A stretch of DNA of 64,000 bases from contig JBFIXI010000006.1 of NCBI GenBank assembly GCA_041605955.1, positions 26,853 through 90,852 on the forward strand, written 5' to 3'. This document shows positions 7,373 through 14,355 of this stretch, piece by piece. The notes beneath the pieces were generated by a model. It ran no database searches. It saw only the letters and a program-made list of their open reading frames with translations, and was not told where the DNA came from. Numbering within the stretch: the first letter of the stretch is position 1; every line of letters starts with the position of its first letter. Made by a program: the position numbers and the translations under genes. The DNA is from Acidimicrobiia bacterium. Lineage in GTDB: Bacteria > Actinomycetota > Acidimicrobiia > Spongiisociales > UBA5794.

Positions 7373-8074
7373 ATGAGCGAAGAAGAGCTGGATCTGACAG
7401 CGCTGTCCGACGAGGAACTCGTCCCGCAGATGCACGACGATCTCTACGACGGGCTCGCCGACGAGATCGCCGCGGGTACCAACATCCTGTTGGAGAGGGG
7501 CTGGAGCGCGTCTGACGTGCTCAACGATGCGCTCGTAGAGGGCATGCGCATCGTAGGCATCGACTTCCGTGACGGGATCCTCTTCGTGCCCGAGGTGCTG
7601 CTCGCCGCCAACGCCATGAAAGCGGGCATGGAGATCTTGCGACCCCTGCTGGCGGAGACCGGCGCGGCAACCATCGGCAAGGTGGTGATCGGGACCGTGA
7701 AGGGCGACATCCACGACATCGGCAAGAACCTCGTCGGGATGATGCTCGAAGGGGCCGGATTCGAGGTATTCGATCTCGGCATCAACACCGATGTGGATGA
7801 GTTCCTCGCCGCTCTCGAGCAGCACCAGCCGGACATCCTCGGCATGTCGGCGCTGCTCACCACGACCATGCCCTACATGAAGGTGGTGATCGACGCCCTC
7901 AAAGACAAAGGCCTGCGCGACGACTACATCGTGCTGGTCGGCGGCGCCCCGCTCAACGAAGAGTTCGCCGCCGCCATCGGAGCCGACGCCTATTGCCGCG
8001 ACGCCGCCATCGCTGCCGAGACCGCCACCGAGCTGGTCACCAAGCGCCGCATCCTGCTGAGCGAGGATGCCTGA
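7373..8074 (+). CDS. cobalamin-binding corrinoid protein (MtbC/MttC/MtgC-like)
   Basis: B12-binding DxHxxG motif (GDIHDIGKN) and a cap domain. AGGTGG RBS before the ATG. Confidence 0.85.
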   Translation: MSEEELDLTALSDEELVPQMHDDLYDGLADEIAAGTNILLERGWSASDVLNDALVEGMRIVGIDFRDGILFVPEVLLAANAMKAGMEILRPLLAETGAATIGKVVIGTVKGDIHDIGKNLVGMMLEGAGFEVFDLGINTDVDEFLAALEQHQPDILGMSALLTTTMPYMKVVIDALKDKGLRDDYIVLVGGAPLNEEFAAAIGADAYCRDAAIAAETATELVTKRRILLSEDA

Positions 8075-8086
8075 AATGGTCGACCG

Positions 8087-8719
8087 GTGATATCCGGACA
8101 CGGATCGTCGCCGCCGCGGGTGTTGATTCTGGCGTGCGGGGCCTTGGCGAAGGAGATCCGCGACCTAGTGGCCGCCAACCGATGGGGCCACGTCGACCTC
8201 GAGTGCCTCCCGGCTCGGCTCCACAACACGCCCCGGGACATCCCCGCTGCCGTCGCCCACCGCTTGGAGCGAGCAGGCGATCGCTACGACCGCATCATGG
8301 TCGGCTACGCCGACTGCGGCACGGGCGGCTTGCTGGATCCCGTGATAGCCCGGTTCGGGGCGGAACGGCTTCCCGGAGCCCATTGTTACGAGTTCTACGC
8401 CGGCCGGGACGTCTTCGCCGAGCTCCACCAAGAGGAGCTAGGCACGTTCTATCTCACGGACTTTCTGGTCAAGCACTTCGACCGGATGGTGTGGAACACT
8501 TTGGGGCTCGATCAGCATCCGGAGCTGCGGGACACCTACTTCGCCAACTATCGACGGCTCGTCTATCTGGCCCAGACTGACGATCCCACCCTCGCCGCGC
8601 GAGCAGCCGCGCAAGCAGACCGCCTGGGGCTCCGCTTCGAGCATCGGCCGGTGGGATACGGCGAGATGGAGATCGAGCTTGCCCGGTTTGCCGCCGGTCG
8701 TCCCCAGGAGGCGGCGTGA
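8087..8719 (+). CDS. DUF1638 domain protein
   Basis: Recalled DUF1638 N-terminal signature (VLILACGALAKE). GTG start. The stop overlaps the next gene's start (ATGA). Confidence 0.6.
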   Translation: MISGHGSSPPRVLILACGALAKEIRDLVAANRWGHVDLECLPARLHNTPRDIPAAVAHRLERAGDRYDRIMVGYADCGTGGLLDPVIARFGAERLPGAHCYEFYAGRDVFAELHQEELGTFYLTDFLVKHFDRMVWNTLGLDQHPELRDTYFANYRRLVYLAQTDDPTLAARAAAQADRLGLRFEHRPVGYGEMEIELARFAAGRPQEAA

Positions 8720-9018
8720 ATGCCCACGTGACCATCATCATGTGGCGGGACATGCCGGCTCAGGTGGTTGCCAAGAAGGGCCGGGTGACCCACAAGATCG
8801 AATTGGCGCCGCGGTTCCAGCAGGCCATCGATCGGGCGGCGATGCGGGCCGGGTCGATCGGCAGCGACGAGTACCTCGAGGACTGGCGGCGCGAGTCCCG
8901 GCCATGCGGCGACGACCTCGAGACAGAAGCTGCTGCCGAAGCCGCCAGGATCGATGCGCAGTTCCCCCTCGACGTCTTGAACGAGTACGTGATCAACAAC
9001 GGATATCGGAGCACCTGA
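8716..9018 (+). CDS. small hypothetical protein (100 aa) co-transcribed within the methyltransferase operon
   Basis: ATGA start overlap with the upstream gene, so the two are translationally coupled. No recognisable catalytic motif. Confidence 0.45.
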   Translation: MNAHVTIIMWRDMPAQVVAKKGRVTHKIELAPRFQQAIDRAAMRAGSIGSDEYLEDWRRESRPCGDDLETEAAAEAARIDAQFPLDVLNEYVINNGYRST

Positions 9019-11953: not shown

Positions 11954-13488
11954 CGGAACGCAGGGGACGGCGCGGCGGCGGCCGGGCGGCCCGGCAAGCG
12001 GCCCGCACCGCCGCCACGCTCGAGTCGGTCCCATTCCTGACGCGGCAGCTGGCCCCGGTCGAGGTTATGTCGACCGAGGGCCTGGAGATCATCGAGCACA
12101 ACGCCGACACCCTCTTGGAGCAGGTTGGCGTCGAGATCGTCGGATACGACGAGGCTTTGAAGATCTTTGCCGATGCCGGCGCCGACGTCACCGACACCCG
12201 GGTTCGATTCCCCCGCGGGATGTGTCGCCAGATCATCCAGGCGGCGGCGCCGAAATCGTTCACCCAACACGCGCGTAACCCGCAGCGGTCTGTCGTGATC
12301 GGCGACCCGCACACGGTGCTCGTTCCCGCCTACGGGTCACCGTTCGTGCGCGATCTCGAAGGCGGCCGCCGCTATGCGACGATCGAAGACTTCAACAACT
12401 TCGCCAAGCTGAGCTATATGTCGCCGGCGCTACATCACAACGGGGGGACGCTGTGCGAGCCGGTCGATCTTCCCGTCAACAAGCGCCATCTCGACATGGT
12501 CTACGCCCACATCAAGCACTCCGACAAGCCGTTCATGGGGTCGGTCACCCATCCCGACCGGGCGGCCGACTCGGTGGAGATGGCGCGTATCGTATTTGGG
12601 GCCGACTACATGGAGGAACACACGGTCATCCTCGGCCTGGCCAACGCCAACTCACCGATGTCGTGGGATTTCAACATGCTGGGGTCGGCCAAGGTGTACG
12701 CCGAGGCCAACCAGGCAACGCTGATCACACCCTTCATCCTGGCAGGGGCGATGTCGCCGGTCACCGTCGCCGCCGCAGCGACTCAGACGTTGGCGGAGGC
12801 GCTTGCCGGTCTGGCGTTCACGCAGATCGTGCGACCCGGCGCTCCCGTCATATTCGGGTCGTTCGCCAGCTCGATGTCGATGCAGTCGGGGGCGCCCACG
12901 TTCGGCACTCCAGAGCCGCAGCTCGTCCTCTATACGATGGCGGCTCTGGCACGTCGAGTCGGTGTGCCGTTCCGGTCCGGCGGCAACTTCACCGCCTCCA
13001 AGATCCCCGATGCCCAGGCCGCGTACGAGTCTGCGATCAGCTTCCTGCCCGCCATCCAGGCCGGGGTCAACTTCCTGCTGCATACCGCCGGATGGCTCGA
13101 GGGGGGACTGGCGATGGGCTACGAGAAGTTCGTCATCGACGCCGATCAAGCCTCGATGATGGCGAAGTGGGTCCAGGGAGTCGCCGTCGACGAGAACGGC
13201 CTTGCCCTCCAGTCGATGCTCGACAACGGCCCGGGACAGCACTTCCTCGGCACCGCGCACACCCTGGCCAACTTCGAGACGGCTTTCTGGAGCTCGCGGC
13301 AGTCCGACAACAACAGCTTCGAGCAGTGGCTCGAGGACGGAGCGAAGGACTCGGTGACGAGAGCCCACGAGACTTGGAAGCGAATGCTCGCCGAGTACGA
13401 GCCGCCGGCGTTCGACGATGCCAAGGACGAGGAATTGTCTGAGTGGATTGCCGCCAAAAAGGCCTCCGTCCCCGACAGCGACGTTTAG
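11950..13488 (+). CDS. MttB-superfamily (trimethylamine methyltransferase family) non-pyrrolysine methyltransferase, candidate glycine betaine (or other quaternary amine):corrinoid methyltransferase
   Basis: Arg-rich N-terminus (RRGRRGGGRAARQAAR) then LESVPFLTRQLAPVEVMSTEGLEIIEH, typical of the family. The ORF is continuous with no in-frame TAG. TTG start overlaps the ramA stop, with an alternative ATG at 12067. Confidence 0.8.
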   Translation: MTERRGRRGGGRAARQAARTAATLESVPFLTRQLAPVEVMSTEGLEIIEHNADTLLEQVGVEIVGYDEALKIFADAGADVTDTRVRFPRGMCRQIIQAAAPKSFTQHARNPQRSVVIGDPHTVLVPAYGSPFVRDLEGGRRYATIEDFNNFAKLSYMSPALHHNGGTLCEPVDLPVNKRHLDMVYAHIKHSDKPFMGSVTHPDRAADSVEMARIVFGADYMEEHTVILGLANANSPMSWDFNMLGSAKVYAEANQATLITPFILAGAMSPVTVAAAATQTLAEALAGLAFTQIVRPGAPVIFGSFASSMSMQSGAPTFGTPEPQLVLYTMAALARRVGVPFRSGGNFTASKIPDAQAAYESAISFLPAIQAGVNFLLHTAGWLEGGLAMGYEKFVIDADQASMMAKWVQGVAVDENGLALQSMLDNGPGQHFLGTAHTLANFETAFWSSRQSDNNSFEQWLEDGAKDSVTRAHETWKRMLAEYEPPAFDDAKDEELSEWIAAKKASVPDSDV

Positions 13489-13497
13489 GAGACGACA

Positions 13498-14355
13498 GTG
13501 TTGTTCAAGCGCAAGGTGGAGGCATCCCCGGCGGGCAAGGCGGCGATCCGGGCGCTGTTGGAAGATCTGACCTACGAGCTGATCCCGCTGAGCAACGTGC
13601 TGCCGCAAGCAGAGTTCCTCCCCACCGGGGCTCGCGTGTCGGTCACCGCCTCGCCTGCCAAGGGCATGCAGGCGACGGTCGACCTGGCTCTGGAGCTGAG
13701 ACAGCGCGGCTTCGACGTCGTGCCCCACATTTCGGCCCGCTTGACAGAGGACCGCGCCCAGCTCGAGAGCATCATGAAGCAGATCGGCGACGTCGGCATC
13801 AAGAAGGCATTCGTCGTGGGCGGCGACGCCGACCCTCCGGGTGAGTACTTCGATGGCCTGTCCGTGCTCGAAGCCATGGACGAGATCGGTCACGATCTGG
13901 AGATCGGCATCCCCGCCTACCCGGAGGGACATCACTTCATTCCCGACGACTCCATCGAGCAGGCCTTGGTCGACAAGCAGCCCTACGCCTCGTACATGAC
14001 TACCCAGATGTGTTTCACCCCGGGCACGATCGCCGACTGGATCACCGGCCAGCGAGCCCGCGGCATCCACCTTCCCGTGTCGATCGGGATCCCCGGCGTT
14101 GCCGAGCTGCGCAAGCTGATCGGTATCTCGGCCCGTATCGGTGTCGGCGACTCGCTGAAGTTCGTCACCAAGAACACCGGTCTCGTCGGCAAGCTGGTCC
14201 GGCCCGGCGGCTACGCCCCCGACGACCTGATCATCGGCTTGTCCGAGACGCTGGTGGACATCGACGCCAACATCATCGACTTCCACTGCTACACGTTCAA
14301 TCAGGTCGAGAGCACGGAAGAGTGGCGGAAGTCCATGCTCGAGTCGCTCGAGTAA
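13498..14355 (+). CDS. metF: 5,10-methylenetetrahydrofolate reductase
   Basis: AGGAGA RBS before a GTG start. MetF-like TIM-barrel sequence, 285 aa. Confidence 0.8.
   Translation: MLFKRKVEASPAGKAAIRALLEDLTYELIPLSNVLPQAEFLPTGARVSVTASPAKGMQATVDLALELRQRGFDVVPHISARLTEDRAQLESIMKQIGDVGIKKAFVVGGDADPPGEYFDGLSVLEAMDEIGHDLEIGIPAYPEGHHFIPDDSIEQALVDKQPYASYMTTQMCFTPGTIADWITGQRARGIHLPVSIGIPGVAELRKLIGISARIGVGDSLKFVTKNTGLVGKLVRPGGYAPDDLIIGLSETLVDIDANIIDFHCYTFNQVESTEEWRKSMLESLE

Follow-up and report, generated by a model that had tools for sequence, protein, structure and literature searches.

Which methyl donor does a complete corrinoid-dependent methyl-transfer operon serve in a bacterium that appears to be neither a methanogen nor an acetogen, and in which direction do the methyl groups move? 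The question is raised by seven genes at positions 7373–14355 of a 64-kb stretch of contig JBFIXI010000006.1 (hereafter the window; 64,000 nucleotides, with a uniformly high GC content of 64–71%). We consider it probable that the locus is a catabolic module for the first steps of glycine betaine demethylation, of the aerobic MtgBCD type. It does not represent a new kind of system, as aerobic bacteria were shown in 2025, with genetic evidence, to possess this one, and it occurs widely in soil and marine genomes, metagenome-assembled genomes (MAGs) included; its residual interest lies in an altered aromatic residue of the substrate pocket, a non-canonical methylenetetrahydrofolate reductase (MTHFR), two conserved uncharacterised proteins and a conserved operator. 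The genes of the operon are as follows:

7373–8074, + strand: mtgC, corrinoid (cobalamin) methyl-carrier protein (Pfam B12-binding_2, E = 1.4e-16; B12-binding, E = 1.4e-28)
8087–8719, + strand: DUF1638 protein, putative accessory factor (Pfam DUF1638, E = 2.5e-28; NCBI start at 8120, 199 residues)
8716–9018, + strand: 100-residue PF13769 protein (Pfam "Virulence_fact", E = 3.4e-19)
9042–9950, + strand: mtgD, pterin-binding methylcobalamin:tetrahydrofolate methyltransferase, MeTr/AcsE-like (Pterin_bind, E = 2.6e-31)
9950–11953, + strand: RACo-type ATP-dependent reductive activase (Fer2, RACo_linker, Raco_middle and RACo_C_ter, down to E = 1.5e-88)
11950–13488, + strand: mtgB-like methyltransferase of the MttB superfamily (Pfam MTTB, E = 2.2e-217, 722 bits, full length)
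13498–14355, + strand: metF2-like enzyme of the MTHFR family (Pfam MTHFR, E = 3.1e-08, 33.8 bits, cut-off 24)

The initial annotation, made from the sequence alone, had described seven co-directional, mostly overlapping genes in this interval, and the open reading frames (ORFs) and Pfam domains confirm all of them at the same coordinates. The junctions at 8716, 9950 and 11950 show overlaps of 4, 1 and 4 bases, the remaining gaps are 9–23 bases, and the ATG of mtgD at 9042 is preceded by AAGGAGA. That description of the sequence is correct and the operon is real. The functional interpretation given with it, a three-component corrinoid methyl-transfer set with a reductive activase and an enzyme acting on methyltetrahydrofolate, outside methanogens and acetogens, is in essence also borne out, by domain content, synteny and homology to a genetically characterised system. 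The products that start at 7373, 9950 and 11950 have exact matches on record, all on one NCBI contig. When the family-specific NCBIfam cut-offs were applied to all seven products, only the pterin-binding protein passed a specific model, and the other six fell below all specific cut-offs.

The mtgB-like gene encodes the enzyme that would remove the methyl group from the donor. Its 512 codons hold no internal stop and therefore no amber (pyrrolysine) codon, and the protein scores 265 bits on the model for pyrrolysine-containing MttB (TIGR02369), against a cut-off of 525. The pyrrolysine-dependent trimethylamine methyltransferase MttB was thus ruled out as its identity, in keeping with the initial annotation, which had noted the lack of pyrrolysine; no tRNA-Pyl or other tRNA was found in the 64-kb window. 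Matches in the PDB comprise 4yyc (651 bits, 58% identity), MtgB of Desulfitobacterium hafniense (2qne/9yce; 395 bits, 41% identity) and pyrrolysine-containing MttB (7xcl; 119 bits). The protein is accordingly a PF06253 methyltransferase without pyrrolysine, as in the aerobic-type MtgBCD system.

Mutagenesis and a betaine-bound crystal structure of D. hafniense MtgB assign the binding of glycine betaine to four residues, with Tyr97 and Phe356 engaging the quaternary ammonium through cation–pi contacts and Arg312 and His348 engaging the carboxylate (Picking et al. 2026, PMC13080624). The window protein keeps three of these four as Tyr128, Arg342 and His378, and the two carboxylate-binding residues, Arg342 and His378, are invariant across the clade to which it belongs. 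An expectation that the binding residues would be conserved in this protein holds for the equivalents of Tyr97, Arg312 and His348 and fails for Phe356, which aligns with Gly386, so that the aromatic pair of the D. hafniense enzyme is not reproduced. Four residues upstream of Gly386, Ile352 of the D. hafniense protein is replaced by Trp382, as it is in 4yyc; the second aromatic residue may have been lost, or it may be supplied from this neighbouring position. The resulting Tyr–Arg–His–Trp–Gly pattern occurs in 82 of the 83 sequences of the clade, 4yyc among them. A neighbour-joining tree places the window protein among the operon-linked copies of Acidimicrobiia, with the proteobacterial copies (including 4yyc) as their sister group and D. 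hafniense MtgB as a remote outgroup. The invariance of the pocket pattern within the operon-linked clade argues for one conserved substrate.

Upstream of mtgC, and transcribed away from it, lies a second operon, separated from the first by a short intergenic region:

7109–7372, no strand assigned: divergent promoter region of 264 bp, with a sigma-70-like site and two tandem palindromes
4505–7108, − strand: dimethylglycine oxidase/dehydrogenase-like flavoenzyme (Pfam DAO, FAO_M, GCV_T and GCV_T_C)
3744–4508, − strand: etfB, electron transfer flavoprotein (ETF) beta subunit (Pfam ETF, E = 1.2e-27)
2791–3747, − strand: etfA, ETF alpha subunit, the last gene of the divergent operon (ETF_alpha, E = 6.1e-33; ETF, E = 9.6e-26)

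These genes correspond to the ETF-linked flavoenzymes that the initial annotation had noted beside the operon. The flavoenzyme (867 residues) matches Arthrobacter N,N-dimethylglycine oxidase over its full length as its best solved relative (1pj5; 527 bits), followed by the mammalian dimethylglycine dehydrogenases 5l46 and 4pab (277–284 bits). Both its domain architecture and its closest kinship are those of a dimethylglycine oxidase/dehydrogenase, and a preference for dimethylglycine over sarcosine is putative. The etfB gene overlaps both of its neighbours by 4 bases. Homologues of the flavoenzyme with 74–86% identity occupy the same divergent position in seven Acidimicrobiia-type loci, and etfA is kept with the dimethylglycine dehydrogenase-like gene in the related loci L001, L003, L019, L031, L033 and L056.

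Among the quaternary amines considered, glycine betaine alone yields dimethylglycine, the expected substrate of the divergent flavoenzyme, upon demethylation, and for this reason the neighbouring operon fits glycine betaine as the methyl donor. The initial annotation had left the substrate of the MttB-family member unassigned; the divergent gene with etfBA, together with the conserved binding residues, now makes glycine betaine a likely, if not proven, assignment. It is the best-supported substrate, and we hold it with reasonably good confidence.

Known systems lend context to this assignment. The initial annotation had regarded such systems as known from a few anaerobes, a view that is now outdated: the aerobe Ruegeria pomeroyi responds to glycine betaine as growth substrate by inducing two PF06253 proteins (MtgB), MtgC, MtgD, a RamA-like protein, a DUF1638 protein and MetF2, and genetics shows that mtgC and mtgD are needed for both betaine catabolism and methionine synthesis (Mausz et al., PNAS 2025, PMC12478193). 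In other taxa, mtg genes are often co-located with genes for dimethylglycine and sarcosine demethylation; in Sinorhizobium meliloti, MtgBCDE and the reactivation modules are clustered; and about 5% of oceanic mtgC reads were assigned to Actinomycetota (PMC12478193). The window locus shares with this system its parts (PF06253 methyltransferase, MtgC, MtgD, ferredoxin–ASKHA activase, DUF1638 protein and MTHFR paralogue) and the linkage to dimethylglycine genes. It differs in holding the parts together in a single compact operon, where R. pomeroyi has them at scattered sites, and in its host, which is probably a member of the Acidimicrobiia (Actinomycetota) rather than of the Pseudomonadota.

The annotated S. 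meliloti cluster that contains an MttB homologue also encodes a cobalamin-binding protein, a DUF1638 protein, a PF13769 "virulence factor", a methyltetrahydrofolate (methyl-THF):cobalamin methyltransferase and an ASKHA protein, together with MTHFR genes, bmt and a glycine betaine/proline ATP-binding cassette (ABC) transporter gene. Identities between the two sets are 75% for MtgC, 64% for MtgD, 58.6% for the MttB homologue, 58.5% for the activase, 52% for the PF13769 protein and 45% for the DUF1638 protein; the two loci hold the same system. The value for the MttB homologue is close to that for 4yyc. In contrast to the S. meliloti cluster, no mtgE/bmt gene lies near the window operon.

Could the same machinery act on another donor, such as proline betaine, carnitine, gamma-butyrobetaine, choline, phosphocholine or another methylated osmolyte? 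MttB-superfamily members at 40–50% identity can differ in substrate, and MtcB and MtyB, which are 53% identical, are named for different substrates. Equivalents of Arg312 and His348 are also kept in other enzymes acting on acidic quaternary amines, among which the aromatic pair varies (PMC13080624), one of the two aromatics is changed in the window protein, and many genomes hold several MttB paralogues. Set against these points are the dimethylglycine expected by the divergent flavoenzyme, the proximity of the orthologous S. meliloti cluster to bmt and to a glycine betaine/proline transporter gene, the induction of MtgB homologues on betaine in R. pomeroyi (PMC12478193) and the constancy of the pocket pattern across the operon-linked clade. 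On balance we regard a different donor as unlikely and retain glycine betaine. The acetogen Eubacterium limosum offers a parallel in that one corrinoid protein and one THF methyltransferase (MtqC/MtqA) serve several MttB-superfamily enzymes (MtpB, MtcB, MtyB and MthB); by description it stands apart in its acetogenic host, its 42 paralogues and its different substrates.

The direction of methyl transfer is the second point at which the locus could be read differently. The proteins might mainly, or additionally, constitute a split cobalamin-dependent methionine synthase, in which MtgD would load MtgC from methyl-THF, an MtgE encoded elsewhere would make methionine, and the RACo-type activase and DUF1638 protein would reactivate the cofactor. 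Such an arrangement has precedents: MetH is missing from about 70% of the marine genomes that have MtgBCD (PMC12478193), and in Phaeobacter inhibens a RamA-like protein and a DUF1638 protein have been connected with reactivating the B12 of a split methionine synthase (Price et al. 2018, PMC5764234). The three-part P. inhibens enzyme resembles the window set in its B12-binding, pterin-binding, RamA-like ferredoxin–DUF4445 and DUF1638 proteins; its third module binds homocysteine, whereas that of the window belongs to the MttB family. No homocysteine methyltransferase (PF02574) was found among the scanned ORFs of the 64-kb window, and the presence of MttB-family and metF2-like genes within the operon, with a promoter region shared with the dimethylglycine oxidase-like operon, is a catabolic layout. 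On the strength of these 64 kb, a principal or additional role in methionine synthesis seems improbable to us, to about the same degree as a different donor, and demethylation of glycine betaine remains the preferred reading.

Turning to the methyl-transfer partners, MtgC carries the DxHxxG motif of His-on corrinoid proteins (DIHDIG, at residue 112) and has 1y80 as its best solved relative (195 bits). It scores below the cut-offs of both NCBIfam models for the MtgC proteins of anaerobes (209 against 370 bits and 176 against 310 bits). MtgD is the product that passes a specific model, PRK07535 for methyl-THF:corrinoid methyltransferase (374 bits, cut-off 259), and its best solved relative is MeTr (2yck; 150 bits). 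A cobalamin-binding MtgC separate from a pterin-binding MtgD is again the arrangement of the aerobic-type system.

The activase matches RACo of Carboxydothermus hydrogenoformans over its full length (3zyy; residues 3–636, 311.7 bits), with the Fer2, linker, middle and C-terminal domains present in order and with Cys39, Cys45, Cys48 and Cys89 fitting the 2Fe–2S ferredoxin pattern Cys-X5-Cys-X2-Cys…Cys. By sequence it is assigned the bacterial RACo/AcsV architecture with an N-terminal 2Fe–2S ferredoxin. Its 380 bits on the NCBIfam AcsV model, against a cut-off of 800, make it a relative of RACo/AcsV and not an AcsV equivalog. The initial annotation had called this protein a RamA-type activase; the ATP-dependent reductive activase is upheld, whereas identity with methanogen RamA is rejected (TIGR04270, 105 bits against a cut-off of 500). 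A ferredoxin–ASKHA/DUF4445 activase with a DUF1638 partner is likewise found in the aerobic-type MtgBCD system.

Since the best solved relatives of MtgD and of the activase are the MeTr and RACo of C. hydrogenoformans, and since the Pfam scan returned a weak CdhD match on MtgD, the genes might also be a remnant or part of the methyl branch of the Wood–Ljungdahl pathway, with MeTr and RACo serving a corrinoid iron–sulfur protein (CFeSP) in an anaerobe. We reject this explanation as exceedingly improbable: the 64-kb window holds no genes for carbon monoxide dehydrogenase/acetyl-CoA synthase (CODH/ACS) or CFeSP, the corrinoid protein, with its His-on DxHxxG motif, is a small one of the MtaC/MtgC type, the scores on AcsV (given above) and on CODH_ACS_meth (150 bits against 370) fall far below their cut-offs, and the cluster is orthologous to that of the aerobe S. 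meliloti.

Like the MtgABC proteins of the strict anaerobe D. hafniense (Ticak 2014; Picking 2026, PMC13080624), the window set follows a three-component logic, and full-length homology links the two MttB-family proteins. The window proteins differ in the Gly and Trp that stand at Phe356 and Ile352 of MtgB and in an MtgC that is not recognised by either anaerobe model. D. hafniense MtgA is described as having no sequence identity to known structures (PMC7154762); the window MtgD is MeTr/MetH-like.

Two further genes accompany the core. For neither the DUF1638 protein nor the PF13769 protein did sequence comparison with the PDB give a solved relative, and the PF13769 protein had no structural neighbour there. 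AlphaFold2 models are confident for both, with predicted local distance difference test scores (pLDDT) of 87.3 for the DUF1638 protein, from an alignment of 47 homologues, and 92.6 for the PF13769 protein, from 52 homologues. The DUF1638 protein (taken as 8120–8719) has a predicted flavodoxin-like fold, with Cys6, Cys29, Cys66, Cys89, His35 and His88 invariant across the 47 homologues, which suggests a metal or redox centre. By analogy with characterised systems, the protein may be an accessory factor of corrinoid reactivation. What the initial annotation had listed as a small unknown protein belongs to the PF13769 family and is a conserved member of the cluster, present in 37 of the 60 related loci that were informative on gene content (see below) and in S. 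meliloti. This gene is not mentioned by Mausz et al. (PMC12478193), and the family label "virulence factor" is a misnomer here. The DUF1638 and PF13769 genes together accompany the system from Alphaproteobacteria to Actinomycetota and Chloroflexota.

The last gene of the operon had been named MetF. Its product does belong to the MTHFR family; it is not a canonical MetF, scoring 44 bits on the NCBIfam MetF model against a cut-off of 294 and matching canonical MTHFRs only at E values of about 0.02. Among solved structures it has one strong relative, S6MTHFR of Sphingobium lignivorans SYK-6 (7xg9; 111.6 bits). A mycobacterial flavin-independent MTHFR was considered as the identity of this gene and rejected, as 7xg9 is the Sphingobium enzyme and the mycobacterial structures 7WMW and 7WMZ did not match. 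Oxidation of methyl-THF is the activity of S6MTHFR, which barely reacts with NADH and is the defining member of a "type 4" of MTHFRs coupled to THF-dependent demethylases; in this type a signature of Leu48, Arg78 and Pro268 is tied to methyl-THF oxidation and to the exclusion of NADH (Yu et al. 2025, PMC11868366). The catalytic Glu21, Asp107 and Gln175 of S6MTHFR have identical counterparts in the window protein. Of the type-4 residues, Phe269 is retained, as is the proline of Leu48–Pro49 (as Ser–Pro); the others are replaced (Leu48 by Ser, Arg78 by Leu, Cys219 by Ile, Pro268 by Thr, and Gly270/Gly271 by Asn/Gln). Because these signature residues are missing, the enzyme is not filed as type 4, and its sequence would place it in a sister lineage of type 4 rather than among the demonstrated members.

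The closest annotated relatives of the metF2-like protein (39–44% identity) are encoded on Haloarcula marismortui pNG700 (L082) and Rhodococcus opacus pR1CP1 (L083). The former lies near two FAD oxidoreductases of about 850 residues (dimethylglycine dehydrogenase-like), a Rieske oxygenase subunit and a GcvT-like gene, and the latter near a LigM-like aminomethyltransferase, which is a THF-dependent demethylase, purU and folP. As with S6MTHFR, the window gene immediately follows the gene of a demethylase expected to make methyl-THF (PMC11868366). Kinship with S6MTHFR and the occurrence of homologues beside THF-dependent demethylases fit a methyl-THF-oxidising role, and we infer that the enzyme may oxidise methyl-THF to methylene-THF. 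A comparable route operates in the aerobe Methylorubrum extorquens CM4, whose chloromethane pathway of CmuAB, MetF2, FolD and PurU brings methyl groups to THF in a corrinoid-dependent way and then oxidises methyl-THF with a dedicated MTHFR paralogue (PMC11868366); compared by description, the methyl donor differs, and CmuA, with its fused corrinoid domain, is unrelated to MttB.

S. meliloti has a different MTHFR solution, consisting of a 363-residue MTHFR and an "MTHFR C-terminal domain" protein (L081, 5446–7121), and this MetF/MetV-like pair has no detectable similarity to the window metF2-like gene. At the 3′ end of the latter (14344–14390), the final 12 bases, including the stop codon (TCGCTCGAGTAA), are repeated twice downstream as TCGCTCGAGTAG (at 14359 and 14379). 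An exact-pattern search found the three copies, with zero expected by chance; Tandem Repeats Finder reported nothing at this position. The repeat looks like a small triplication.

Together, these proteins may form a pathway in which the MtgB-like protein would transfer an N-methyl group of the quaternary amine to Co(I) of MtgC, yielding methyl-Co(III)-MtgC and dimethylglycine, after which MtgD would pass the methyl group from MtgC to tetrahydrofolate and the metF2-like enzyme would convert methyl-THF to methylene-THF, delivering the carbon to C1 oxidation or assimilation. Co(II) formed by accident would be returned to Co(I) by the RACo-type activase with ATP and its own 2Fe–2S domain, probably assisted by the DUF1638 and PF13769 proteins. 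On the divergent side, the dimethylglycine oxidase-like flavoenzyme would convert dimethylglycine to sarcosine and pass electrons to EtfAB. Both operons share the promoter region, whose palindromes are the probable target of an IclR-type repressor with its gene elsewhere. More tentatively, it is conceivable that the metF2-like enzyme is a further lineage of methyl-THF-oxidising MTHFRs that uses the neighbouring ETF in place of NAD(P)+, and that the DUF1638 and PF13769 proteins belong, unrecognised so far, to the apparatus that reactivates or protects cobalamin, and enable a Co(I) enzyme to function in cells that respire oxygen; we put this combined proposal at well short of an even chance.

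Several points weigh against the proposed betaine module. In addition to the substituted pocket aromatic, the MttB-family protein is only 41% identical to the characterised MtgB, and for the aerobic-type MtgB of R. pomeroyi, too, the specificity is putative. Experiments on the aerobic system come from marine Alphaproteobacteria, and the function of the Actinomycetota and Chloroflexota copies is predicted from their genes. In the metF2-like protein the signature of Leu48, Arg78 and Pro268 is missing. The 64-kb window contains no betaine transporter or sarcosine oxidase and no IclR homologue, and an aerobic physiology is only suggested, by the ETF, Ccm genes and a CoxL-like molybdenum hydroxylase. 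These points temper the assignment and leave it, in our judgement, the most probable one.

The operon is not confined to this contig. Close homologues of the MttB-like protein number in the thousands, and a scan of species-representative genomes with this protein gave at least 598 matching stretches. Among the matches listed, the nearest are an unclassified MAG (84% identity) and Acidimicrobiia MAGs (70–77%), followed by Chloroflexota (Limnocylindrales), Actinomycetes and Thermoleophilia/Gaiellales, with a few Pseudomonadota, Acidobacteriota and Verrucomicrobiota. These nearest relatives make an Acidimicrobiia-like actinomycete the probable host. Synteny was counted in 60 informative loci with enough upstream flanking DNA. 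The four core genes occur together (mtgC, mtgD and the activase gene beside the MttB homologue) in 39 of these, and all seven genes occur in the order of the window in 27, from Acidimicrobiia, Actinomycetes, Thermoleophilia, Chloroflexota and others. Recurrence at this frequency argues that the arrangement is not due to chance.

If the assignment is correct, the locus extends to Acidimicrobiia-like Actinomycetota a route of glycine betaine demethylation shown so far in marine Alphaproteobacteria, and related loci would carry it on to Chloroflexota, Thermoleophilia and further groups from soil and sponge metagenomes. This spread suggests that cobalamin-dependent osmolyte catabolism is common well outside the roseobacters of the ocean. 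The compact operon also provides a clean parts list for reconstitution, with the DUF1638 protein, the PF13769 protein, the non-canonical MTHFR and the conserved operator as targets.

Some Chloroflexota versions of the locus carry a GMC oxidoreductase gene (choline dehydrogenase-like) and etfBA upstream of the operon. The presence of these genes near the operon in some loci (L050, at 1463–3100; also L051, L063, L055 and L076) fits a route from choline through betaine to dimethylglycine. Chloroflexota genomes additionally possess a second MttB paralogue, which is 73–76% identical to the window protein, compared with 67–70% for their own operon-linked copy (L006–L013, L015–L018, L020, L025 and L078, with the match at about 10001–11500 in most; L006 and L048 share a contig). 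This non-operon paralogue adjoins an Opp/Dpp-type ABC transporter (L012), which is uninformative on its substrate.

Conservation extends into the intergenic region between the two operons. A sigma-70-like site (TGGACA-18-TATTGT) lies at 7231–7260; terminator and promoter counts in the window were no higher than in shuffled sequence, and the site is a candidate promoter only. Directly after its −10-like TATTGT follow two tandem palindromes, GTTCCGCTATGCAGCAC at 7259–7275 and GTTCCGCATTGTGGGAAC at 7277–7294, and an additional GCGGAAC half-site is found at 7094–7100, within the 5′ end of the dimethylglycine dehydrogenase-like gene (region 7094–7118). In about 25 related loci, which span several phyla, mtgC is preceded by tandem 17-bp palindromes of the form GTTCC-N7-GG(A/C)AC with starts 18 bp apart (for example L026, L030, L039, L046, L048, L050, L051, L060, L063, L064, L067 and L075). 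At least 30 related loci have an IclR-family gene beside the operon, placed either upstream in divergent orientation or immediately downstream, and the tandem palindromes are probably an IclR-type operator. As no Rfam family reached its gathering score anywhere in the window, the idea of a riboswitch or another RNA element ahead of the operon was discarded.

The remainder of the window includes housekeeping genes and two further groups. A three-gene molybdenum hydroxylase resembling CoxS/CoxL/CoxM (2Fe–2S, Mo-binding and FAD subunits) occupies 16215–19974; its CoxL-like large subunit scores 649 bits on the model for aerobic CO dehydrogenase, below the cut-off of 991. At 47091–54633, a protein with RTX repeats (HemolysinCabind) is followed by a Ccm system I cluster encoding a CcmA-like ABC ATPase, CcmB, CcmE, CcmF and CcmH.

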